Part shown: positions 2,315 through 19,939 of the stretch, piece after piece
Numbering within the stretch: position 1 is the first letter of the stretch
Layout: every line of letters begins with the position of its first letter
Made by a program: the position numbers and the translations under genes
From: an uncultured delta proteobacterium
Lineage (GTDB): Bacteria; Desulfobacterota; Binatia; UBA9968
DNA: 20,130 nt
NCBI GenBank assembly: GCA_963745835.1
Contig: CAVUZH010000017.1
Location: forward strand, 1 to 20,130
Reading direction: 5' to 3'
The notes under the pieces: model-generated
The model's database searches: none
What the model was told of the DNA's origin: nothing
The model's input: only the letters and a program-made list of their open reading frames with translations

Positions 2315-2938
2315 ATGAGCATCATGAACAGTACAACGAACTTGGTTACCATATTAAGTCCCAAGGTCCGACGTGTTCAGAAGGCGCAGACAAGCACATC
2401 AAAGCAAAGTCTGACGCTTAGCCCCGTTCCGCCGGATTTAAATGGAAAAACCATCGGGTTTCTCGACAACGGTAAGAAGAATTTCGATGTTTACCTCGAC
2501 CGCACCGACGAGCTGCTCCGTAGACATTACACCTTTACGACTCTACGCCGCCGCAAGGCCGTGCCCATAAAGGGTGTTACGTCGGACTTGTTTCAGGAGA
2601 TGATCACAGGCTGCGATGTTGTAATCACCGGCAGCGGAGATTGAGGCTCCTGCTCGTCGTGGAGTCTTCACGACATCGTCCAGTTCGAAAAGCACGGCAT
2701 TCCTGCAGTGGTCATTTGCACGCATGTTTTTGAGTCTACTGCCAAATTTCAAGCTAAGGCGCTTGGTTTGCCTGATGCACGAATCGTTGTGGTACCCCAT
2801 CCGTTTAGCGGAGTCGATGCCGCAGAGGCGGCAAAAAAAGCGGATCAGGCTTTTCCTGCCCTGCTCGCGCTCCTCTCGCGACCTAATGGCAAGTCTGCTT
2901 ATTACCGTAAGGTAAATCGCCGGAGAAACCAGCCATGA
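2315..2938 (+). CDS. UGSC-family selenoprotein, copy 1 (207 aa, Sec at codon 110, TGA 2642-2644)
   Basis: ORFs 2315..2644 and 2708..2938 share one frame, separated only by a TGA. Read-through gives DVVITGSGD-U-GSCSSWSLHDIVQFEKHGIPAVVICT...VPHPF. RBS GAGGTG upstream, SECIS-like hairpin downstream, same arrangement in the paralog at 15124, and the stop overlaps the next start (ATGA 2935-2938). Confidence 0.9.
2656..2674 (+). promoter_or_regulatory. Putative bacterial SECIS hairpin, copy 1
   Basis: GTCGTGGA-GTC-TTCACGAC: 8-bp stem (one G-U pair) with a G-containing apical loop, starting 11 nt after the in-frame TGA. Confidence 0.75.
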
Positions 2939-4011
2939 AAGTTGCTCTTCAAGCCGAAAGAATCGATTTGCCGGATTCGCTCGAAGAGATCAATCGTTAT
3001 CTTTACGCCAATGGTATGACGGACGGTCTTCCGATCGTACCTCCTACTGAAGACCGGGTTTCACGGATGCTGGAAGGAACCAGCCTCGAACCTTATTTCG
3101 AGGTGGCCTCGCTGCCCCCGGAGTGGGCGCCGGCGACGGTCGAAGCGATCGCAATCAATGCCGTGATGGCCGGCTGCCTGCCTGAGCATATGCCGGTGCT
3201 GATCACTCTTGTGAAAGCCATGGCCCAGCCGGAGTTCTCGCTTCTTGGTGTCCTCGCTACGACCGGGGGCTATGCCGTTTCGGTGATGCTCAATGGGCCG
3301 ATCAGACACGAGCTGGACATTAACTGCACCAACAATCTGTTTGGCCCCGGCAAGCTCGCCAACGCCACCATCGGGCGTGCTCTACGTCTCTTTCAACTCA
3401 ACATCGGCGGTGTCATTCCGGGTGTAACCGACAAGTCATGCCAGGGCTGGCCCGGCAAATACACAATTTGCTGGGGTGAAAATGAAGAAGCCTCGCCGTG
3501 GACTGCTTACCATGTAGAGAAAGGTTTTTCTCCAATGGATAACACGGTAACGATCTTCGCGGCAGATTCTTTTTGTAAGATTAGAGCTGGTGGCACGGTT
3601 GGGCGTGGCGCTCTGCAGTCGCTCGCCTATGGGACGCGTCCGGTCGGCGCGGTGTTAAATGGTTGGGGAAACGGCGCCAAACCGTTCATAGCTCTCGGAC
3701 CCGAGACAGCTAGTCAGATTGCTAGAGACAATATTTCAAAAGCGGAAGTGCGCGAGTATTTTTTCGAGCACGCACGCTCGTCGTTCGATGAGCTTTATCA
3801 GCCAGAGAGCGGCGAAAAGATCAGCTTCGAGGAGATGCAAAAGCGCTGTACGAATCTTTGGCCGGACGGAACGGTGAGCATCGCCGATCAGCCGGACGAC
3901 ATCAGCGTTGTTGTCGCGGGCGGACCGGGCCGACAATCCGTCTGGTTCCCAGCCAACGCTCGTTCCATGCCAGTCACCATGCTGATCGATCCGCTTCTGA
4001 AACGAACTTGA
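2935..4011 (+). CDS. Uncharacterised UGSC-associated protein (TDGLP...NAVMAGC family), copy 1
   Basis: 358 aa. Motifs TDGLPIVPPTE, IAINAVMAGC-PE, NGP, ANATIGR, GWPGKY, GENEE-SPW-HVE-GF and VVVAGG are shared with the paralog at 15726. Translationally coupled to the selenoprotein gene. Confidence 0.88.
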   Translation: MKVALQAERIDLPDSLEEINRYLYANGMTDGLPIVPPTEDRVSRMLEGTSLEPYFEVASLPPEWAPATVEAIAINAVMAGCLPEHMPVLITLVKAMAQPEFSLLGVLATTGGYAVSVMLNGPIRHELDINCTNNLFGPGKLANATIGRALRLFQLNIGGVIPGVTDKSCQGWPGKYTICWGENEEASPWTAYHVEKGFSPMDNTVTIFAADSFCKIRAGGTVGRGALQSLAYGTRPVGAVLNGWGNGAKPFIALGPETASQIARDNISKAEVREYFFEHARSSFDELYQPESGEKISFEEMQKRCTNLWPDGTVSIADQPDDISVVVAGGPGRQSVWFPANARSMPVTMLIDPLLKRT

Positions 4012-4041: not shown

Positions 4042-5052
4042 ATGCCATACGATAGAATATTCGCAGCCTCGTTTTCTTTAGCGATCTTTTTCATCTGGAC
4101 TCATTGCACTCGCGCTGCCGAGCCGATGGAAGAAGCCAGGAAGGAAGGTGAGGTCGTTTTCTACGGCAATGTGCGCCAAGAGCATATCACTAAGCTCAAT
4201 GAATCCTTCCAAAAAAAATATCCTTTTATCAAAGTTCAGTATCTCCGCGCAGGTCCTCTGGCGGTTATGAACCGAGTCATGACAGAAGCACGAGTTGGCA
4301 GCCGGCTTGTCGATGTTATCAATCTCGATGTCTTCAACTCCTGGGTATTAAAGGAAGCCGGACTGCTGCAGCCTTATAAATCCAGAGAGACCGAAGCTTT
4401 TCCGGAACAATACCGCGATCCCTCAGGGCTCGTGCCTTGCTGCATGTACGTCTCAAGCAACGTCATCGGCTATAACACCAAACTTGTTGCTCCACACGAA
4501 ATACCTAAAACGTATAACGATCTGCTCGATCAAAAATGGAAGGGAAAGATCGGTCTTAAAAGCGACGACTCGAAATGGTTTGCACCGCTTGTTTGGATTT
4601 GGGGCAGGGACAGAGCCGTCAACTACTTTCGCGGTCTCATCAAACAACAACCCGTGCTCCGCGAGGGAATTTCGATTAATGGCCAGCTGTTGGCGGCTGG
4701 TGAAGTAAGTGTATTTGTAAATATCGCCGGCGATGTCGTCCTGAATCTGCAATCGGTTGGCGCTCCCGTGGAGATAGTCCAAGCAGCGCCTTCGATCTTC
4801 CGCCCTGGGAATTTACTCTTAGCCAAGAACGCCCCTCATCCCAATGCCGCAAGATTGTTCATGGACTACGTTCATTCAGCCGAAGGTCAACAGGTCTTAG
4901 CGGATTTGGGCCGAGAGGTGGCAAGACCGGGCATCAAGATGAAATACCCGCGGCTCCAACAAACGAGCAACCTCGTCCCAGTCAAGCCTGAAATGGCGAA
5001 AAACTATGATGAGCTACTTAAGCTATACGAGTCGATTCTTAAGAACGGGTAG
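4042..5052 (+). CDS. ABC transporter substrate-binding protein, Fe3+/thiamine/polyamine-like (FbpA/AfuA-type)
   Basis: RBS AAGGAG; signal peptide; motifs EARKEGEVVFY, YNTKLV...PKTYNDLLDQKWKGKI and APHPNAARLFMDYVHSAEGQ. Ligand not determinable. Confidence 0.9.
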   Translation: MPYDRIFAASFSLAIFFIWTHCTRAAEPMEEARKEGEVVFYGNVRQEHITKLNESFQKKYPFIKVQYLRAGPLAVMNRVMTEARVGSRLVDVINLDVFNSWVLKEAGLLQPYKSRETEAFPEQYRDPSGLVPCCMYVSSNVIGYNTKLVAPHEIPKTYNDLLDQKWKGKIGLKSDDSKWFAPLVWIWGRDRAVNYFRGLIKQQPVLREGISINGQLLAAGEVSVFVNIAGDVVLNLQSVGAPVEIVQAAPSIFRPGNLLLAKNAPHPNAARLFMDYVHSAEGQQVLADLGREVARPGIKMKYPRLQQTSNLVPVKPEMAKNYDELLKLYESILKNG

Positions 5053-5070
5053 GAGAGTGAATTCATTGCC

Positions 5071-6051
5071 ATGATGGGAATAATCACAGTCGTCTTAATG
5101 CTCGTCTGCTTGCTGATGCAACCAGCCTTGGCTGCCGACAAGATTCGGATCGGATACTCCGGCTTAAGCCCGGCCACCGGGATGCTATGGGTTACTCAGG
5201 AGGCTAAGCTCTTCGAAAAGAATGGTCTTGCTCCCGAAGTGCTGTTCCTGCGTAACAACCTGGGCCAGGCGGCATTGATCGCGGGGGAAATCGAAATGTG
5301 CGGTTATTCCGCAAGCCTGTTGGCGCCCGCGCGTGTGCAAGGAGCCGATCCGTTGATGATCGTGAGCTTTCAGAAAAAGCTAAACTATCGTCTGGTGGTT
5401 CGGCCGGAGATTCGGACCTTGGAGGATCTCAAAGGCAAGGTTCTCGGGGTTACCCGTTATGGCACGGTGAACGATTGGACGATGCGACTGCTGCTCAACA
5501 AGCTGGGAATTAACCCCGAACGGGATGTCAGGTTGATTCAGGTAGGGGATTCGGCTCCCGCCGTCGCGACGTCGCTCATTGCCGGCAAAACGTTTGACGG
5601 CGCCCTGCTTCAGCCGCCTTTTTACAATAAGGCCGTGGAAACCGGTATGCGGGTCTTTGCCAATATGGAAGAGATGGACATTGCATTTCAGCAGACAGGG
5701 CTCAACACCACGCAGAGGTATATCACCAAAAATCCCGATATAGTACGCCGCGTCGTGAAGTCGGTCGTAGAGGGCGTGCATTTGATCCATACTAATCCAG
5801 CGCTGGCGAAGCGCGCGATCAGCCGTTACATGCAGATCAAAGATGAGAAGGCGGTCGAGGAGTCCTATCAGCAGCTGAAATCGACTTCTGAAATTAAACC
5901 TTATCCTTCGGCGGAGGGCTTCAAAACGATATTGGATGACTTGGCTAAAAAACTCCCGGCCGCGCGCACGGCAAACCCTCGGGACTTCATGGATGCGCGG
6001 TTTATTCAGGAACTGGACAAATCGGGATACATCGACGGCTTGTACAGGTGA
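5071..6051 (+). CDS. ABC transporter substrate-binding protein, NitT/TauT family
   Basis: Signal peptide ending ALA-ADKIRIGYSG; LKGKVLGVTRYGT; C-terminal FIQELDKSGYIDGLYR. Close paralog of the gene at 18072. Confidence 0.92.
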   Translation: MMGIITVVLMLVCLLMQPALAADKIRIGYSGLSPATGMLWVTQEAKLFEKNGLAPEVLFLRNNLGQAALIAGEIEMCGYSASLLAPARVQGADPLMIVSFQKKLNYRLVVRPEIRTLEDLKGKVLGVTRYGTVNDWTMRLLLNKLGINPERDVRLIQVGDSAPAVATSLIAGKTFDGALLQPPFYNKAVETGMRVFANMEEMDIAFQQTGLNTTQRYITKNPDIVRRVVKSVVEGVHLIHTNPALAKRAISRYMQIKDEKAVEESYQQLKSTSEIKPYPSAEGFKTILDDLAKKLPAARTANPRDFMDARFIQELDKSGYIDGLYR

Positions 6052-6075
6052 TTTCGATGAATTGAAGGAGCAGAA

Positions 6076-7161
6076 ATGCTGAGGAAACAATCTTGGAAAA
6101 TAACGGTTCTGGTCGTTTCTATTTTCTCCTTGTTCGGCTCCCATTCCGGACTGGTGCTCGCGCAGAGCCGCAGCGAGACGCTGCAAGCGATCTCTAAATT
6201 AAAGGGAAACGAAAGAGAAACAAAGCTTCGGGAAGGTGCCCGCAAAGAGGGAAATCTGATCTGGTATTCGAGCACCACCGCGGAAGATTCATTGGCACTG
6301 AATCGCAAATTCCAGGAGATCTATCCGTTCGTGAAGGTGCAGCATCTCCGCGCGCCGAGTGAGAAGATGATCGAAAGGATCCTGCTTGAGTCGCGGGCAG
6401 GCAGCTTCAAAGCCGATCTTGTTGCTCTGCCGGAGATCGAGCTGACGGTTTTGACCCAAAGAAAATTACTGTTGAAACATGCCGGTTTAGAGCACGAGGC
6501 GTTTCCCGCCGATGTCAAAGACCCGATGGGTTACTGGACGGGAATCTATGTGACTGCCTGGGTACTCGCCTATAATACCAATCTGCTGACAGCCCAGGCC
6601 GCGCCGAAAACCTATGCCGATCTGCTTAATCCCAAGTGGAAAAAACTGATGGGAATGGACACTGAACCTTACTCCTGGTTCATCACTTCCTTCCGCTATC
6701 TGGAAAGCCGGCAAGGCACGGCTGGAGCAACGGAATATTTCAAACGGTTGGCGTCTCAAGAGCTCGAATGGCGCAAAGGCCACAGCCTGATCGGTCAACT
6801 CATCGCGGCAGGGGAGTTCCCCATCGGCGTGGAGATGCAGGCCGGCTCGGTGGAGCGACTCAAGGCGCAGGGCGCTCCCGTCGATTGGGTGGCATTGGAT
6901 GGAGTCATGCCGATTAACAACGTTGGCATCAGCGTTACAACGGCGGGAGCCAATACACATGCTGCTTTGCTATATTATGATTTTCTTCTCTCCCGCACGG
7001 GCATGGAGATTATGAAATCCCGTAATAGAATTCCCACCCGTCCCGACGTTACAGTTCCCTATCTGAAGCCCTACAAGCTGCTGCCTTTCGATGCCCAGGT
7101 GGTGGATCACTTCGATCGTTACATCACCCAATTCAAAGACCTACTCAAACCCCGATCATGA
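6076..7161 (+). CDS. ABC transporter substrate-binding protein, Fe3+/thiamine/polyamine-like
   Basis: RBS AAGGAG; signal peptide; motifs GARKEGNLIWYS, YNTNLL...PKTYADLLNPKWK and AALLYYDFLLS. Paralog of the gene at 4042. Confidence 0.9.
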   Translation: MLRKQSWKITVLVVSIFSLFGSHSGLVLAQSRSETLQAISKLKGNERETKLREGARKEGNLIWYSSTTAEDSLALNRKFQEIYPFVKVQHLRAPSEKMIERILLESRAGSFKADLVALPEIELTVLTQRKLLLKHAGLEHEAFPADVKDPMGYWTGIYVTAWVLAYNTNLLTAQAAPKTYADLLNPKWKKLMGMDTEPYSWFITSFRYLESRQGTAGATEYFKRLASQELEWRKGHSLIGQLIAAGEFPIGVEMQAGSVERLKAQGAPVDWVALDGVMPINNVGISVTTAGANTHAALLYYDFLLSRTGMEIMKSRNRIPTRPDVTVPYLKPYKLLPFDAQVVDHFDRYITQFKDLLKPRS

Positions 7162-10671: not shown

Positions 10672-11658
10672 CTATTTTCCCCTTGCCTTCCTCTCCTGAG
10701 CAAGCTGCTCTAGGAAAGATAAATCCAATAACTCGAGAACGTTCAATTTCATCGAGGAGAGATTCTTATCGTTGGCAATCACGTTCTCCATCGCTTTAGC
10801 CGTAACGATCGGCAATCCCGGAGTTACCTGACTATAGACTCTGCGGGTCTCTTCCAGCTCCTCGACTACGTTGGAACGATAGTATTCACCCAAATATTTA
10901 AGAACTCGATCTTTGTTTCTCTCGTCCCGGTAAAAGTCCATTCCATCGGCCAATCCGCGCATAAAGTTCATGACCGTCTCCCTATCGGTGCGGATGAACG
11001 ACCGCATGGTCACCGGTCCGGCAATTGTGTATTCGAAATCCTCCTTGGAAAAATCGAGAAACGTCGGATAACCGGCTTTGCGCGCCTTCAGCGTAAAAGG
11101 CGATTGCAGAACCGTCGCCTGAATCTGTCCCAGCGTCAATGCTGTCCAACGATCTCCCTGGCCGCCAATGCCGACGATCTGGACGTCTTTATCAGGATTT
11201 AACCCGAGTCGCCGAACGGCGACGCGGGCGATAAAGTCCGTGCTCGATCCAATTTGACTGACGCCGATTCGCTTTCCTTTGAGATCGGCATGCTGCTTGA
11301 TCGTTGGATGCGCCGCTACGATGTAGTCCAAGCGATTGCCGACGGCGCCGATTATCTGAAACTCCTTGGCGCCCTGCGCCCACGCCGCGACGACAGTGGA
11401 TGCGCCTTGGAGCTGCAGCGGCAGGTCGCCCGAGAGAGCAGCCTGAATTCCCATGAGGCCGCCGCGAATGTAGATGGGTTCGAGCTTCAAGCCGTATTTT
11501 TCGAACGAGCCCGAGCGGTACGCAACCCAAAAGTAACTAGAGGAACCGCCCAGCGGATACCCAACCTTAATTTCCCGCAACTTGCTATTCTGGGCAGAAG
11601 CAAAGCAGGGAAAAACCAACATGCAGCACAGCAGGTATAAAATTATCTTGCGTTTCAT
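10672..11658 (-). CDS. ABC transporter substrate-binding protein, NitT/TauT family
   Basis: Signal peptide MKRKIILYLL...ASA; LKGKRIGVSQIGSSTDF; GLNPDKDVQIV; FMRGLADG. Confidence 0.92.
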   Translation of the reverse strand: MKRKIILYLLCCMLVFPCFASAQNSKLREIKVGYPLGGSSSYFWVAYRSGSFEKYGLKLEPIYIRGGLMGIQAALSGDLPLQLQGASTVVAAWAQGAKEFQIIGAVGNRLDYIVAAHPTIKQHADLKGKRIGVSQIGSSTDFIARVAVRRLGLNPDKDVQIVGIGGQGDRWTALTLGQIQATVLQSPFTLKARKAGYPTFLDFSKEDFEYTIAGPVTMRSFIRTDRETVMNFMRGLADGMDFYRDERNKDRVLKYLGEYYRSNVVEELEETRRVYSQVTPGLPIVTAKAMENVIANDKNLSSMKLNVLELLDLSFLEQLAQERKARGK

Positions 11659-11718: not shown

Positions 11719-13545
11719 TCACTGTGTCCTGAACCCATTGCTCTGACTCCCCGGATTTGCATTCGGATTTTGGGAGTTCGACGGATTGTTGGAATTACCG
11801 CCTCCGGGAGCGCTGTTGGGGTTATCAGAAGCCAGATTGTGCCAGCTCTGACGGTTACCTTCGCACGTAAAGTTGCTTGCGACGTTGATATCGCCGGAAC
11901 CGATATAGCGGGTCTGTTTCGGATAGGGGCACAGCGGACGGCTGCGGGATGCCACTCCGAAGTAGCCGGGGTTGCTGGCCGTTGCGATAACCTTATCCGG
12001 CGCGACGCCGTTTTCCACCCAATTGATAATCTCTGGAAACATTTCGAAGTCATCTGTTGAAGGCCCACCACTACAATGATTCATGCCAGGCACCACAAAC
12101 AACCGTACATAGTTCGCGGCCTTATGGTCTTGGGCAAGCACGTCGTTGTACCAGTCGATCGTTGCATTAACTGAAAACGCGCCGTCCGCTCCACCGTGGT
12201 AAACGATCATTTTGCCGCCGTTAGCCTTGAACGCGGATAGGTCGGTGGAGTCGACTGATCCCAGCTCAGCCGCCGATTCGGTATATATGCCCCCTGTTTC
12301 GTGTATCCTTTCAAGGAAGGTATCGAAATCGAAATCCAGCTGGAACGGAACACAGTCTATGGCGGTGACAAACGGTATCAATGGATGGGCAGTATACCTG
12401 AGCGCTGATGATGCACAGCTCCTGGTTACTCTCTGGGCATTGTTGGTGGTCGCGTTAAACGAACCAAGCACCCAAGAGCGCCAGCCTTGGTTGAAGGTGG
12501 AGCCTGACCGACCGCCGATACCCGGATCCCATGGCCAGTTGGCATACAGCTGGGTTCCGTCGGAGTCCTTCATTCCCGCCATCACAGTCTGAAGCGCCGC
12601 GATCTGATCCGCCGTCAGGCAATCGGCGGTTTTTGCGCCAGTGCACGTCACCGCCGCCAGAGCGGCATTCACCCGACCTGACTTGCATGCCGGCATGTTG
12701 TCGACGATCCCGTCTTTAAGGCCATCCAGCCGATCGCATGCCGCCAAAACGGCATTCCGTATTAGTAATAGATCCTCGTCGGTGTAGATTTTATTGATGA
12801 GGGGGTTGCCTGCGGAGTCAAAGCTCGTCGCTATTTTAGCGAAAACTTGTGTGGCATAAGCGCCGTTCGCCGACGAGTGTGGCCGCAGAATGCCGGGATC
12901 TCCGGCGACGATGCCGTCGAAATGTTTCGGAAACGTCTGCGCCATCAGCATCGCTTCCGCCCCACCTTGGGAACACCCGACATAATAAGAAAATAGGGGC
13001 TTCTGTCCATAATAGATGCCAACCAACTCTTTCCCCACTCGAGCGGTCTGGTCATAAGAGTTATAGGAGAAATCGATTCTGGCTTGTGGATCGATGGAGA
13101 ATACGTTCGTGCCACCTACATTGGGATCAGTGTTGGTCTCATTATCATGTCCGGAATCAGTGCCGATCGTGACGTAGCCTAGCGGCAGAATAGTCGTCGG
13201 ATCTTCAACGGTACCGTTGCTGCCGCCGCCGCCGCCCATGTAGAATCGCTCGTTCCACGCGGAGGGCATGCGTACACGGAACTTGATGGCATAAACCTGT
13301 CCGAGCACACCTACTCGCTCGTTGATCTTGCCATCGACAAGACAATGCTCTGGCAGACTCTGGGTAGCCGGGGTAAGCACAGCCGACGTGATAACGACCT
13401 TCGGGATAGTGGGGCTGGTAAACTCCGTAAGGGAACTGCAGGCGACAATGGGAGCCGGAGTAGCGTGTGCGTCGGGGATCGCCGCCATCATCATAATAGC
13501 CCCGCCAAGACACCCGAGTAGTCGCGCCTTCGTAAAGATGTTCAT
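11719..13545 (-). CDS. Tannase/feruloyl esterase family hydrolase, MHETase-like
   Basis: Start at 13545 (MNIFTK) after GAGGAG; signal peptide; catalytic GCSQGG (Ser codon 12970-12972), YHGGADGAFS and PGMNHCSGGP (the CS-D-HC tannase signature); RPLCPYP; lid segment NQGWRSWVLGSFN...NNAQRV. Confidence 0.93.
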   Translation of the reverse strand: MNIFTKARLLGCLGGAIMMMAAIPDAHATPAPIVACSSLTEFTSPTIPKVVITSAVLTPATQSLPEHCLVDGKINERVGVLGQVYAIKFRVRMPSAWNERFYMGGGGGSNGTVEDPTTILPLGYVTIGTDSGHDNETNTDPNVGGTNVFSIDPQARIDFSYNSYDQTARVGKELVGIYYGQKPLFSYYVGCSQGGAEAMLMAQTFPKHFDGIVAGDPGILRPHSSANGAYATQVFAKIATSFDSAGNPLINKIYTDEDLLLIRNAVLAACDRLDGLKDGIVDNMPACKSGRVNAALAAVTCTGAKTADCLTADQIAALQTVMAGMKDSDGTQLYANWPWDPGIGGRSGSTFNQGWRSWVLGSFNATTNNAQRVTRSCASSALRYTAHPLIPFVTAIDCVPFQLDFDFDTFLERIHETGGIYTESAAELGSVDSTDLSAFKANGGKMIVYHGGADGAFSVNATIDWYNDVLAQDHKAANYVRLFVVPGMNHCSGGPSTDDFEMFPEIINWVENGVAPDKVIATASNPGYFGVASRSRPLCPYPKQTRYIGSGDINVASNFTCEGNRQSWHNLASDNPNSAPGGGNSNNPSNSQNPNANPGSQSNGFRTQ

Positions 13546-13635
13546 GACTGATCTCCTCATAATTCTGGGAATCAACCGTTGGCAGAACTTTTCACCGAAG
13601 TTTTTCGACATGAGCATTTACTCAGAGTCGCTAAG

Positions 13636-15123: not shown

Positions 15124-15675
15124 ATGATTATCTTAAGCCCGGAAGGGAAGGCGCGAATATCATCGGAGCGGATTCCCGCCTTACCACGATTTGCAGATCT
15201 GAATGGCAAGACTGTGGGATTTTTGGACAACAGCAAGCCCAATAACGATCTATTGCAGTCGCGTTTTGAGCAGCTGCTGCGACAAAATTGCGATGTGGGT
15301 GGCGTTGTCCGGCGACGAAAGCTGACCGCGCAGCAAGGGGCGCCCAAAGCGTACCTCGATGAACTCGCTGCTCAGTCCGATGTCGTTATCAGCGGACTGG
15401 GAGATTGAGGGTCGTGCACATCGTGGAGTATCCACGATTCCATCGAACTGCAAAAAAGAGGCAGACTCGCGGTCACCGTCGTCTCTCATCCTTTTGAAGC
15501 GCTCGCGAAGTCGGAGCGCGAAGCTTTCGGCGCTCCCGATTCCCCTATCTTGATCGTGCAGCATCCGATCGGCACGGTGAAACCGGAGGAGGTTAAAAAG
15601 CGCGCTGACGCCGCCTTCGACAAGCTGCTCGAAGCCTTGCTCCATTCGCACCAGGGCACAAATGGAGCGTCATAA
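15124..15675 (+). CDS. UGSC-family selenoprotein, copy 2 (183 aa, Sec at codon 95, TGA 15406-15408)
   Basis: DLNGKTVGFLDNSK...DVVISGLGD-U-GSCTSWSIHDSIELQKRG...IVQHPIG, open to TAA at 15673-15675. Homology to copy 1 continues on both sides of the TGA. Confidence 0.9.
15420..15438 (+). promoter_or_regulatory. Putative bacterial SECIS hairpin, copy 2
   Basis: ATCGTGGA-GTA-TCCACGAT: perfect 8-bp stem starting 11 nt after the TGA, with pairing-preserving changes relative to copy 1. Confidence 0.8.
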
Positions 15676-15725
15676 GCGGTATACGGTTTAGCAACAGTAC
15701 TTCGGAGACATTGGGGATAAGGAAG

Positions 15726-16778
15726 ATGACACAGCAAGAACTCCAAGCGGAACGGATTGAAATTGAAGATGATCTTTGGGCGGCTAACGATTTTTTCGAA
15801 ACGAAGGGTTGGAGTGACGGACTACCGATCATTCCTCCTACGGAAGAGCGTGTCGCGCGGATGCTAGGCGCGACTAGGCGCAACCGGGATGAGGTAATCG
15901 GCACGGTGCCACCGAAGTGGGCGCCAGCTACTGTGGAGAAAATTGCCATCAACGCCGTCATGGCTGGCTGCAAACCTGAATACATGCCGGTGCTTATCGC
16001 CTCTGTCGAAGCCATCACCGAACCAAAACTTAATCTTTATGCACTGCAAGCAACCACTGGCGGGCCGGCGGTGATGCTCATCATCAACGGTCCGGTGCGG
16101 CATCAGATTCAGGTCAATGGTGAGTCGAATGCGCTCGGCGAAGGCTGGCGCGCCAACGCGACGATCGGTCGTTGCATTCGTCTCATCCAGCGAAACATTG
16201 GTGGCTCCTATCCAGGAACGACTTGCAAGGCAACGCTTGGTTGGCCTGGCAAGTACTCCATCTGTATCGGTGAGAACGAAGAGGCTAGTCCGTGGGAGCC
16301 GCTGCATGTCGAGCGCGGCTTTGACAAGAATTCGAGCACTGTCACCGCGATCAGCGCGGACGGTTCCGTTCGCGCTTCTGATCTTGACAGCACGAACGCC
16401 GCAGGTGTGCTGACCAATTTTGCTCAAAAAATGGATGGGCCTTCAGGACCGGAAGCCATCATGGTGGTCTGCCCGGAGCACGCCAAAATCATCGCCAATG
16501 ACGGCTTCAGTAAGAAGGATGTGCAACGGTTTATTTGGGAGCGAGCAGCTTACCGCATGAAAGATTTGCCGGAAGAAACTTTTTATCAAAGGGTAAAGCG
16601 TTGGTCACACCGAAATCTAACCCGTGAGAGTGTCATTCCTGTGACCGATCGACCCGAGGATATTGTCGTTGTTGTGGCAGGTGGTGACGGTTCTCAATCG
16701 CAGTATATCCACGTGTGGGGTCAGAGCACTCCCGAGGGCGGATCGACACGGTCGGTAACCAAAGCCGTACGGGACTAG
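15726..16778 (+). CDS. Uncharacterised UGSC-associated protein (SDGLP...NAVMAGC family), copy 2
   Basis: GWSDGLPIIPPTEERV, IAINAVMAGCKPE, RANATIGR, GWPGKY, GENEEASPWEPLHVERGF, VVVAGG; paralog of 2935..4011. ATG at 15726 follows AAGGA (the track starts at TTG 15711). Confidence 0.88.
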   Translation: MTQQELQAERIEIEDDLWAANDFFETKGWSDGLPIIPPTEERVARMLGATRRNRDEVIGTVPPKWAPATVEKIAINAVMAGCKPEYMPVLIASVEAITEPKLNLYALQATTGGPAVMLIINGPVRHQIQVNGESNALGEGWRANATIGRCIRLIQRNIGGSYPGTTCKATLGWPGKYSICIGENEEASPWEPLHVERGFDKNSSTVTAISADGSVRASDLDSTNAAGVLTNFAQKMDGPSGPEAIMVVCPEHAKIIANDGFSKKDVQRFIWERAAYRMKDLPEETFYQRVKRWSHRNLTRESVIPVTDRPEDIVVVVAGGDGSQSQYIHVWGQSTPEGGSTRSVTKAVRD

Positions 16779-17074
16779 CCTAATCTCACGCCGTCACCAC
16801 TACGGCGACTGCATTGATAGCGGTGATTGGCGCACAGCTTTTGGAATTTGCCCTGATACATTTATGCTAGGCTGGCTAGGGTATCAGCATCTTAGCCAAC
16901 GAGCGGCAGATCAATGTGCCGCAACGACGGGAAGCGACCGTTGCTGTTTAAAGCCATAGGACATCGGTTCGGCCTCACACGCTTGATCCTAAACTTTCTC
17001 AGCCTCACTTCATTTCATTTCACTAGCTGTATAAGCATGAACGAAAAATGACTAAGAACACTTCGGTAATCACT

Positions 17075-18040
17075 ATGAAGAGAATCTTTTATTTAATAGT
17101 GGCCCTGCTCTCCTCGGCTAACTCCACCGAGGCCGCCGACAATCTTCGTATTAGCTATTCAGGACCATCCATAAGCAACGCGCTTCTTTGGGTAAGCAAG
17201 GAAGGTAAGCTTTTCGAAAAAAACGGTCTCAATGTGGAATTGATTTATCTTGCCGGATCTCTAGGACAAAGCGCGCTGATTGCCGGCGAAACTCAATTCG
17301 CCGTTTACACCGGCCTGCTGATGACGCCTGCGCGGCTGCAAGGTGCGGATGTTACCATGGTCGCGAGCTTCCTTGATCATTTGTTATCGAGGCTTGTTGT
17401 ACGTCCTGACATCAGGTCTGCTGCAGATCTTAGGGGGAAACGTCTTGGCGTCACGCGTTTCGGTACGGCGTCGGATTTTGGCATGCGTTTAATGGTTTCC
17501 AAACTAGGCTTAAATCCTGACAGAGACGTTTCCATCCTACAAATCGGCGACAACCCAACACGCCTGGTCGCACTTCAAGCCAAAAGCATTGACGGCGCAA
17601 TCTTCGACCCGCCAGAGTACAAAAAAGCTGTCGAAGCCGGTGGCCATGTCTTGTTTAACCTAGAAGAGACGATGATTCCATACCAGCACGCCGGCCTCGT
17701 AACCACCCGGAAATTTATCAGCAACCGGACTGATATTGCACGGCGAGTTGTAAAAACTATCGTTGAGGGCGCAGCGCTCGTGCGGAAAGAGCCCGTTATA
17801 ACCAAACGAGCTTTGTCAGCGCGTTTGAACGTCAAAGACGAACGGGAATTGGAAGAGACCTATCAACTGTTGCGTGGATTCACGCAACCAAAGCCCTATC
17901 CCAGCCTAGCGGGGTTTCGCGCGATCCTAGACGATTTGTCTAGGAAAATGCCGGCAGCAAAGGGCGCTGATCCCAAAGACTTTTCCGAACCGCGATTCAT
18001 AGAGGAGCTTGATCGAAGTGGTTACATCAACAGCCTCTAA
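17075..18040 (+). CDS. ABC transporter substrate-binding protein, NitT/TauT family
   Basis: Signal peptide MKRIFYLIVALL; LRGKRLGVTRFGTASDF; FIEELDRSGYI. Start could be 17048 or 17075. Confidence 0.9.
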   Translation: MKRIFYLIVALLSSANSTEAADNLRISYSGPSISNALLWVSKEGKLFEKNGLNVELIYLAGSLGQSALIAGETQFAVYTGLLMTPARLQGADVTMVASFLDHLLSRLVVRPDIRSAADLRGKRLGVTRFGTASDFGMRLMVSKLGLNPDRDVSILQIGDNPTRLVALQAKSIDGAIFDPPEYKKAVEAGGHVLFNLEETMIPYQHAGLVTTRKFISNRTDIARRVVKTIVEGAALVRKEPVITKRALSARLNVKDERELEETYQLLRGFTQPKPYPSLAGFRAILDDLSRKMPAAKGADPKDFSEPRFIEELDRSGYINSL

Positions 18041-18071
18041 AAATAATCCCACGATTGGCTTACTAGTATCT

Positions 18072-19031
18072 ATGATCCTGCTCGTTCTGGTAGCGAGTAG
18101 GTCATCATCCGATGCTGCGGACAAGATTCGCATCGGCTATTCTGGCGTGACGGTCAGCAACGCGATGTTGTGGGTCACCGACGAAGCCAAGTTATTTCAG
18201 AAAAATGGTATTGAACCGCAAATTCTCTACCTGCAAACCACTCTCGGACAAACGGCAATGATCGCCGGCGAGGTCGACATGTGCGTGTACTCCGGCAGTT
18301 TACTTTCATCCGCTCGACTGCAGGGTGCCGACGTAGTAATGGTGACCAGTTTTCTCAACAAACCGCTCTATCGACTTGTTGTGCGTCCGGAGATTAGGAC
18401 TGTTGCGGATCTCAAAGGTAAGAGACTCGGTATTACACGTTTCGGCACAGTCACTGATTCGATGTCCCGACTTTTGGTCGGGAAACTCGGGTTGGATCCA
18501 GATAAAGACGTCTCCTACATCCAAGTTGGAGACGTCCCGATCCTACTGGCATCCCTTACCACGGGTAGAATCATTGATGGGGCAATCATTCAGCCACCTT
18601 ACTACCTGAAAGCCCTAGCCTCCGGTATGCGAGTTTTAGTTAATATGCAAGACATGGATATTTCCGTGCAGCAAACCGGTCTGAACACGACGCAAAAATT
18701 TATCTCCAAGAATCCCGACGTCGTGCGCCGCGTCGTAAAGTCGGTGATCGAAGGCATTCATATGATGCGTACGAACCCATCTGTGGCCAAGCACGCGATC
18801 TCGAAGCGTATGCAGATCAAAGATGAAAAAGAAATCGAAGATACCTATTTGCTGCTTAGAAGTTTCGTGCCGATAAAGCCCTATCCGACGTTGGACGGTT
18901 TTAAAACTATCTTTGACGATCTTTCGAGGAAGGTTCCCGCGGCAAAAACCGCCAATCCGAAGGAATTTGTTGATACCCAGTTTATTGATGAGCTTGACCG
19001 GTCGGGCTACATCGACAGCTTGTACAAATAG
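18072..19031 (+). CDS. ABC transporter substrate-binding protein, NitT/TauT family
   Basis: AADKIRIGYSG; LKGKRLGITRFGT; FIDELDRSGYIDSLYK. Start uncertain (ATG 18072; homology suggests 18051). Confidence 0.88.
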   Translation: MILLVLVASRSSSDAADKIRIGYSGVTVSNAMLWVTDEAKLFQKNGIEPQILYLQTTLGQTAMIAGEVDMCVYSGSLLSSARLQGADVVMVTSFLNKPLYRLVVRPEIRTVADLKGKRLGITRFGTVTDSMSRLLVGKLGLDPDKDVSYIQVGDVPILLASLTTGRIIDGAIIQPPYYLKALASGMRVLVNMQDMDISVQQTGLNTTQKFISKNPDVVRRVVKSVIEGIHMMRTNPSVAKHAISKRMQIKDEKEIEDTYLLLRSFVPIKPYPTLDGFKTIFDDLSRKVPAAKTANPKEFVDTQFIDELDRSGYIDSLYK

Positions 19032-19035
19032 CCTT

Positions 19036-19939
19036 ATGGAACAATATGACATTGTTATTGTCGGCGGCGGCATGGCCGGGCTGAGTGCTTGCCATGTATG
19101 GTGGATGGCTTGGTCGCAAGGTATTACTCGCCGAGCGGCAAATGTTTGGCGGTCAAATCATCAACGCGGATCAGGTGGAAAACTATCCCGGCTTTCCTGA
19201 CGGGGTACTCGGCGCTGACCTCGTCGCGCAGGTGCGAGCACAGGCGCTGAAGTTTGGCGCAACGATGCAATATCTTGAGATCACCTCGATCGAAAAACCT
19301 GATAGCGCGTTTGTCCTTCAATCGAATGACGGTGTTTATGGCGCGCAAAGCGTGATCGTCGCTACCGGGGGAAATCCGCGTCGACTCGGGATTAAAGGCG
19401 AAGTCGAGCTTGAAGGCCGAGGCGTTTCCCGCTGCGCGACTTGTGATGGAGCCTTCTTCGCGGAAAAACCGGTGGTTGTTCTCGGCGGCGGTGATACAGC
19501 TTTGGATGAAGCGCTGTATCTTGCAGGTATTGCAAATAAGGTAGCTGTCATTCATCAGACTGAACAACCGACAGCGAGTGCTGCGCTTGTGAGGCGCGCG
19601 AGAGGAAATGACAAGATCGAGTGGCTTTCCCGCGCTTCAATTACGGAAATCATCGGCAGCGAATCCGTTGAAGCCTTGCGACTCAGCCAAGGTGACGAAA
19701 TCGCCACGGCAGCCATGTTCATTGCCATTGGTTTTGAACCGGAAACGGCCCTATTGAGAAGCCTCATCGAGATCGACCGTATGGGTCATGCACCCGTCGA
19801 TCTTCATATGCAAACGTCTGTTCCTGGTTTATTCGCGGTCGGTTCCGCTCGACAAGGAAGCTCGGGACAAATCTCATCTGTCACCGGCGATGGGGTTACA
19901 GCCGCCATTTTTTCTGATCGTTACATTTCTGCGAAATAG
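19036..19939 (+). CDS. trxB: Thioredoxin-disulfide reductase-like flavoprotein with a +1 frameshift near the 5' end (pseudogene or sequencing error)
   Basis: MEQYDIVIVGGGMAGLSA begins at 19036 and continues as AMYGG...GGQI...VENYPGF...GRGVSRCATCDG...GGGDTALDEA...TSVPGLFAVG in the next frame. One extra T at 19089/19090; removing it gives 300 aa. Confidence 0.85.

Follow-up and report, generated by a model that had tools for sequence, protein, structure and literature searches.

The question raised by this locus is whether two short and similar hairpins, each lying just downstream of an in-frame TGA, direct the decoding of that codon as selenocysteine (Sec). The stretch of DNA that was analysed, hereafter the window, comprises 20,130 nucleotides from an uncultured delta proteobacterium and holds two genes of the UGSC family whose reading frames continue through a TGA. 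Copy 1 (2315..2938, forward strand) has 207 codons with Sec as codon 110, encoded by the TGA at 2642..2644, and copy 2 (15124..15675, forward strand) has 183 codons with Sec as codon 95, encoded by the TGA at 15406..15408. When TGA is translated as U, both frames carry G-D-U-G-S-C, including the U-G-S-C motif, and in both the HMM match flanks the TGA on either side. Scores exceeded the cut-offs for NF041046 (143.5 bits for copy 1 and 133.9 bits for copy 2, curated cut-off 125) as well as for PF24696 (168 and 153.2 bits, cut-off 25). For copy 1, the Sec region of glycine reductase selenoprotein B was matched as well, though weakly and below threshold (E 4.5e-4). Its stop codon (TGA, 2936-2938) overlaps the ATG of the next open reading frame (ORF), and translation may in truth begin a few codons downstream of the start given here. 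Each split ORF is a single selenoprotein gene, which standard gene callers would cut short at the UGA. The UGSC-containing protein has been in print as a selenoprotein family since 2007-2008, as the available text of PMC1976440 and PMC2398784 indicates; a table of ocean data in the latter (2008) counts 255 Sec and 21 Cys sequences, and NF041046 is listed in the portion of PMC13188914 (2026) at hand. A description of a UGSC SECIS was not found in the available text of these three papers.

The genome to which the window belongs (7.28 Mb, 25 contigs) contains seven UGSC-like places with one in-frame TGA in each, together with the machinery for Sec insertion: selB (394 bits), tRNA-Sec (74 bits) and selD (383 bits). 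The selB gene (C22:67251-69134) is followed directly by selD (69235-70161), which is a selenoprotein gene too. Distant UGSC-like domains with the motif G-H-U-S-T-C-A-P, in frames of 554-586 aa, occur at C20:54806 (L006) and C15:90005 (L007), and the hairpin downstream of their TGA has a GGUC loop, not a GUN triloop. Directly 3' of each UGSC gene in the window lies an ORF of about 355 aa (2935-4011 and 15711-16778, both forward strand) that matches no Pfam family. The two share 46% identity (E 2e-96), and the first overlaps the UGSC stop codon as ATGA. In the relatives, the open frames that hold UGSC matches are in many cases 550-600 aa long, pointing to a conserved partner or to a fused form. 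The window is also rich in genes for solute-binding proteins, five of them NMT1-like (NMT1/THI5-like) and two SBP_bac; the NMT1/THI5-like, other solute-binding-protein and Pyr_redox_2 genes together occupy 1118-2206, 4042-7161, 10672-11658, 17048-19031 and 19085-19939. A DUF6282 gene and a tannase/feruloyl esterase gene (11719-13617, reverse strand) are likewise present. The Pyr_redox_2 gene (19085-19939) is thioredoxin-reductase-like, and its product could serve as a redox partner for U-x-x-C proteins.

An earlier note on this DNA had placed a hairpin exactly 11 nt after each TGA, with a loop that begins with GU, and folding analysis bears this out. In contexts of 59-61 nt, both the minimum free energy and the centroid structures from RNAfold contain a perfect stem of 8 bp with a 3-nt loop, at 2656..2674 in copy 1 (forward strand, loop GUC) and at 15420..15438 in copy 2 (forward strand, loop GUA). 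Counting from the U of the UGA, both hairpins occupy nt 15-33, and the first two loop bases are G23 and U24. The 11-nt spacer of copy 2 (15409..15419, forward strand) consists of the codons for G-S-C and two bases of the codon for T. Folded by itself, the 19-nt hairpin of copy 1 reaches -8.2 kcal/mol (z -2.98), which 3 of 200 shuffled sequences equalled, and that of copy 2 reaches -9.5 kcal/mol (z -4.66), which none of 200 did. The 59-nt contexts as wholes showed no unusual stability (z -0.02 for copy 1 and -2.00 for copy 2), and the fold of a single sequence alone would therefore not convince. An Rfam scan of the whole window at E values up to 10 gave no match at either hairpin site and, in the rest of the window, just two weak hits that are unrelated. 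The same window holds a sub-threshold match to the fluoride riboswitch (17276-17337, forward strand; 17.6 bits against a gathering threshold of 34, E 0.86) inside an NMT1-like ORF, which is probably due to chance.

The hairpins of the two copies are not identical. Pair 7 is G.U in copy 1 and G-C in copy 2, as had been pointed out, and the basal pair switches from G-C to A-U. That switch had been ascribed to two synonymous changes, of which one holds: on its 5' side the basal pair uses the third base of TCG (Ser) in copy 1 and that of ACA (Thr) in copy 2, leaving Asp GAC/GAT as the sole strictly synonymous basal-pair change between the copies. Since the two proteins are only 40% identical, the shared hairpin does not reflect the identity of a recent duplication.

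A comparison of Sec forms with homologues that encode Cys at the same position was used to evaluate the hairpin. UGSC loci were taken from the window's own genome, 40 relatives, 400 genomes of the window's phylum, 400 genomes of Actinomycetota (the phylum of the Conexibacter genome) and 400 of Pseudomonadota (the phylum of the Janthinobacterium MAG, where 5 of 401 genomes had a UGSC match). Cys-pattern peptide scans added 19 loci from genome_contigs and 40 from metagenome_contigs, all of them Cys forms because Cys was required at the U position. The tally for the relatives (34 of 41 genomes) counts G012, which is flagged as unpublished, and the analysis was run without any locus of that genome. 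As the best-scoring 30 or fewer loci per genome search were used, divergent Sec forms are underrepresented. Searching 175 loci with a profile of 11 UGSC proteins gave 164 domain matches, one of them lacking the U column. The U column of the other 163 matches reads TGA in 89, TGC in 62 and TGT in 12, so that TGA aligns with TGC or TGT in 74 homologous matches. Collapsing identical 48-nt stretches left 82 Sec rows and 61 Cys rows. Sampling is uneven, in that most Cys forms came through the peptide-pattern scan and the Sec forms through HMM scans; the close relatives and the window's own phylum contain almost only Sec forms, and the Cys forms were drawn from the genome_contigs and metagenome pattern scans and the two other phyla.

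Under an 8-pair mask, 90.2% of positions are paired in the 82 Sec rows, and none of 500 shuffles reached this value (shuffle mean 79.2 +/- 0.9). Controls with slid partners gave 15-50% pairing for the same rows, and the covariation score was 0.274 vs 0.112. The 61 Cys rows are 64.3% paired, a value reached by 3 of 500 shuffles (mean 60.5), with slid controls at 34-45%. The hairpin is far from equally conserved in the Cys homologues: a stem with at least 6 of the 7 inner pairs together with a GU loop is present in 70/82 Sec rows and in 0/61 Cys rows, and a loop starting with GU occurs in 71/82 Sec forms and 5/61 Cys forms. A scan for perfect stems under four published bSECIS constraints returned 68/82 Sec and 4/61 Cys forms. 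All 68 of these Sec matches have a GU loop and 62 lie at spacing 19; one of the four Cys matches has GU. Such a scan misses bulged or 6-bp stems, which accounts for the 14/82 Sec forms that fail it, and five T-C-S-[VM]-H-D rows among the failures do have a 6-bp core.

Twelve of the 82 Sec rows have no UGSC hairpin and must use other structures. Four S-W-L-V-V-D Sec rows carry a different hairpin 23-24 nt from the UGA, three with an 8-bp stem and a GUN triloop and one with a 7-bp stem and an AGUUG pentaloop; the S-G-T-V-R-D, S-A-A-V-R-D and H-U-S-T-C-A-P rows have other folds. Among 70 stretches of 72 nt, RNAalifold run de novo predicted the 6-pair apical core alone, and no conserved lower helix between the region of the UGA and sequence further downstream emerged; the rows had been preselected for the hairpin, which makes this analysis informative only on the absence of further helices.

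The residual pairing in Cys forms raises the possibility that conservation of the peptide S-W-S-x-H-D yields the complementarity as a by-product, its codons being self-complementary by chance, in which case the RNA fold would have no function. Indeed, the Cys rows are paired above their slid controls, 12/61 keep at least 7 of the 8 pairs, and their remaining pairs are pair 2 (48/61), pair 3 (55/61) and pair 6. Pairs 2 and 3 are formed by bases at codon positions 1 and 2 of the conserved Ser and Asp, as a peptide by-product would predict for the outer pairs. One Cys form from Conexibacter (L053/L118, S-W-S-V-Y-D) even has the whole 8-bp stem in the same register with loop GCG, the GU being lost through the Ser codon AGC. 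The available part of PMC1794560 describes Cys homologues of selenoprotein descent in which remnant SECIS-like structures follow the Cys codon; the Conexibacter form, with stem and register kept and GU lost, fits this description.

The silent sites are what make a peptide by-product very improbable. The Ser codon at position +7, counted from U, supplies A22, G23 and U24, and it is AGU in 68/68 Sec rows with Ser there; three further Sec rows have UGU (Cys) at +7 and keep G23 and U24. In the Cys rows with Ser at +7 (n=28), the codon is UCG in 16, AGC in 11, UCU in 1 and AGU in 0. Overall codon usage does not explain this contrast, since AGU is equally rare among the other Ser codons of both groups (40/527 in Sec genes, 7.6% and the rarest; 29/443 in Cys genes). 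The third bases of +5, +8 and +9 are likewise fixed only in Sec genes. Over the 70 rows with the hairpin, the third base has an entropy of 0.32 bits at +5, 0.00 at +7 and 0.42 at +9, and of 1.25-1.9 bits at +1, +2, +4 and +11 to +14, a profile that is partly circular because the rows were chosen for the hairpin; the count of 68/68 AGU is not circular. Third positions of the spacer vary freely among homologues (1.25-1.58 bits at +1, +2 and +4), the flanking third positions are saturated, and third-base entropy in Cys rows is 1.55-1.89 bits throughout +5 to +9. An identical peptide offers the most direct comparison. The hairpin-compatible codons are the same in all five distinct Sec forms with S-G-S-V-L-D, whereas in the Cys forms with S-G-S-V-L-D every silent site varies and neither AGU nor a stem with a GU loop ever occurs.

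The stem is moreover maintained by compensating changes across three peptide classes (SWSxHD, SCSVHD and SGSVLD), which also speaks against a mere peptide effect. Pair 7 joins the third bases of +6 and +8: UGG is accompanied by a pyrimidine-ending +8 codon in 35/35 rows and UGC or GGC by a G-ending +8 codon in 36/36, so that the silent site of Val (GUC vs GUG) tracks its partner. This switch is not purely silent, because a change from W to C or G accompanies it. In pair 4, the third base of Ser+5 is matched with that of His+9, and the two codons occur as UCG/CAC in 53 rows, UCA/CAU in 4, UCG/CAU in 2 (wobble) and UCA/CAC in 0. Covariation thus runs through third-codon positions at two pairs (71/71 and 4/4). 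The basal pair, on which the earlier note had laid its stress, is the least constrained of all, being G-C in 49 of 71 rows, A-U in 6, G.U in 1 and mismatched in 15. Its compensatory switch is nevertheless real, and it is recent, as A-U is found in copy 2 and its closest orthologue (L031, 89% identical) and G-C in the next one (L030).

Inverted repeats of this kind are palindromic in DNA also, and the SCSVHD class is perfectly Watson-Crick but for the loop, as would suit a DNA-level palindrome within the gene, for example a protein-binding or recombination site. G.U pairs appear repeatedly within the stem (in 7 rows at pair 5, in 3 at pair 4, in 3 at pair 1 and in 1 at pair 7) and indicate that the structure exists on the mRNA strand only, for the opposite strand, or a duplex cruciform, would have A.C mismatches in their place. 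The register to the UGA is fixed as well, and the element is lost where UGA has become UGY. We therefore consider a DNA-level function exceedingly unlikely, and the element is treated below as an RNA structure.

The phylogenetic independence of these observations was evaluated on a quick maximum-likelihood tree (LG+G4) from which the columns U to +10 were left out and which has many long-branch joins. At least 14 changes between Sec and Cys are required on this tree, and well-supported branches force 6 of these. Across the independent Sec/Cys contrasts on supported branches, the hairpin agrees in 3-4 of 6 and opposes in 0, and a sign test over the 6 contrasts was not significant (p ~0.125). 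The minimum numbers of pair-type changes over the 70 hairpin rows are 17 for pair 1, 4 for pair 2, 4 for pair 4, 3 for pair 5, 3 for pair 7 and 2 for pair 8; with so few changes on the tree, the cell counts given above mostly reflect inheritance. What gives the case its strength is the fixation of silent sites over deep divergence, the UGSC subfamilies being 26-40% identical in protein, and not a large number of independent events. Clear local contrasts are L024, a Sec row adjacent to a 19-row Cys clade; the Cys row L132, which is nested among Sec S-C-S-V-H-D rows and has lost both AGU and the stem; and the pairs L125/L126 and L123/L118.

Taken together, the hairpin behaves as a SECIS, which the earlier note had proposed: it is kept in Sec forms, lost in Cys forms and covaries, and its GU is fixed by a rare Ser codon. 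Each of the two hairpins is very probably the functional SECIS, compact but canonical, of its UGSC-family selenoprotein gene. The further proposal that the element is specific to one lineage does not hold, because Sec genes of the UGSC family have the hairpin in three phyla or more (the window's own phylum, Actinomycetota and Pseudomonadota), shares its register with FdhA and fits the general bSECIS model. We infer that the UGSC hairpin binds SelB and supports read-through, and a plausible sequence of events can be outlined. Once the ribosomal A site holds the UGA, mRNA lying 11 nt further on would be just outside the ribosome and would fold into a stem of 7-8 bp, offering G23 and U24 in its 3-nt loop. 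Opening of the closing A-U pair could turn this into a 5-nt loop, N-G-U-N-U. SelB with Sec-tRNA(Sec) would then bind the loop and be held at the right distance for decoding the UGA as Sec and not as stop.

A functional RNA element that aids UGA recoding without recruiting SelB, for instance by ribosome pausing or by hindering RF2, would also account for the association with Sec. It would also sit well with a stem that lacks the bulged U17, which the accessible text of PMC8659212 names, with G23, as a contact of SelB in E. coli. Mere stability would not demand the invariant G-U at nt 23-24 (68/68 AGU and 3 UGU), which is the published register of SelB contact; the FdhA genes of the same genome share that register, and selB is present in the genome. 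Such an element is accordingly judged very unlikely, and recruitment of SelB is the reading that we retain.

Because the element lies inside the coding region, the hairpin fixes codon choice in the six codons that it overlaps, which in turn limits the amino acids possible there. On this model Ser+5 would have to be UCG or UCA, +6 UGG, UGC or GGC, and +7 AGU (rarely UGU), the third base of +8 would match +6, and His+9 (CAC or CAU) would match Ser+5. The idea that part of the protein conservation here is imposed by the RNA received modest support. By weighted entropy over 171 columns, Sec rows are slightly more variable than Cys rows (mean difference -0.12 bits), and the flanks from -5 to +2 and from +10 to +14 are less conserved in Sec rows. 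Residues +9, +6 and +7 go the opposite way, ranking 5, 12 and 45 of the 171 columns in conservation of Sec rows relative to Cys rows. Residue +7 is S, C, T, V or A in Cys rows; in the 70 Sec rows with the hairpin it is Ser (AGU, 68) or Cys (UGU, 2). These alignments are suggestive of an RNA structure that may constrain residues of the UGSC protein, with subfamily history as an alternative explanation for the conservation at +6, +7 and +9.

To place the element within its genome, both strands were searched for TGA followed by 11 nt, a stem of at least 7 bp and a GUN loop, an arrangement found at 24 places. Contig C3 contains 8 such places, compared with 1-3 in five shuffles of C3. Seven of the 24 are within the coding frame of a selenoprotein gene (UGSC in four cases, FdhA in two and MetE-like in one). 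The MetE-like gene lies outside the window (C14:585906-587027, reverse strand; L185/L186) and encodes 374 aa with a match to PF01717 Meth_synt_2 (67.5 bits). Its in-frame TGA falls within F-G-F-H-V-U-R-G-N, at what we take to be the position of the H-x-C zinc ligand of MetE, and a 7-8-bp hairpin with a G[GU]U loop lies downstream of the TGA in 10/10 loci, the stem being 7 bp in the window's own genome. Its counterparts in related genomes (23 rows at 61-100% identity, 2 of them from G012 and G018, which are flagged as unpublished) have one TGA each, and paralogues of 44% identity or less have no TGA. Methionine synthase, MetE and PF01717 were not found in the main text of PMC13188914, a 2026 review, and a literature search likewise returned no paper. 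The MetE-like protein may represent an undescribed selenoprotein family.

A broader reading, which we offer tentatively and would not yet expect to hold, is that a 19-nt perfect stem with a GUN triloop, having neither the bulged U nor a lower helix, constitutes a self-sufficient minimal natural SECIS common to several unrelated selenoprotein families (UGSC, SelD and the MetE-like protein) and several phyla. SelB would then need only G23 and U24 at a fixed distance from the UGA, and residue +7 (Ser AGU or Cys UGU) would be dictated by the RNA. If true, this would be a clear case of an amino acid, that at +7, fixed by RNA and not by protein function. The present understanding of Sec decoding is unchanged by these results, the UGSC SECIS being an ordinary signal in a known selenoprotein family. 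Its signature at nt 15-33, UCR-UGS/GGC-AGU-NNN-CAY/CUC-GAY, could aid annotation of this abundant and uncharacterised family, and the Sec/Cys codon contrast provides a clean natural example of RNA structure constraining the choice of codon and residue. For selenoprotein engineering, an element of 19 nt that demands few changes of residue could be of interest too.

Comparison with known SECIS systems places the UGSC hairpin at the small end of the bacterial range. The consensus bSECIS, as given in the accessible portion of PMC13188914 and attributed there to the bSECISearch model of Zhang and Gladyshev 2005, has a loop of 3-9 nt, a stem of 4-16 bp, a UGA-to-loop distance of 16-37 nt and an MFE of -7.5 or lower, with a G among the first two loop bases and, mostly, G or U coming next. 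Both window hairpins lie within all of these bounds (3 nt, 8 bp, GU, 19 nt, -8.2 and -9.5), with the shortest loop allowed and no bulges. In E. coli fdhF, the minimal SECIS is a 17-nt upper stem-loop (Liu et al. 1998, in PMC8659212) that spans nt 15-31, beginning 11 nt from the UGA, with U17 bulged and G23 and U24 in the loop; the earlier note's account of fdhF agrees with these passages of PMC8659212. The UGSC hairpins resemble this element in starting at nt 15, in presenting G23 and U24 unpaired in the apical loop and in lying within the coding region. They differ in that the stem is a perfect 8 bp without the bulged U17, the U at nt 16 being paired with A32, in that the 3-nt GUN loop is closed by A22-U26, and in that no conserved lower helix was found. 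The fdhF loop is GGUC. Within the window's own genome, the stem of the two FdhA genes (C18:417573 and C23:50624) begins at about nt 15 and, as in UGSC, G23 and U24 are loop bases, but the loop is a GGUCU pentaloop. The selD gene (TGA at C22:69265) has an 8-bp stem and a GUU triloop closed by A-U, which are very like the UGSC hairpin and are placed 33 nt after the UGA, compared with 19 for UGSC.
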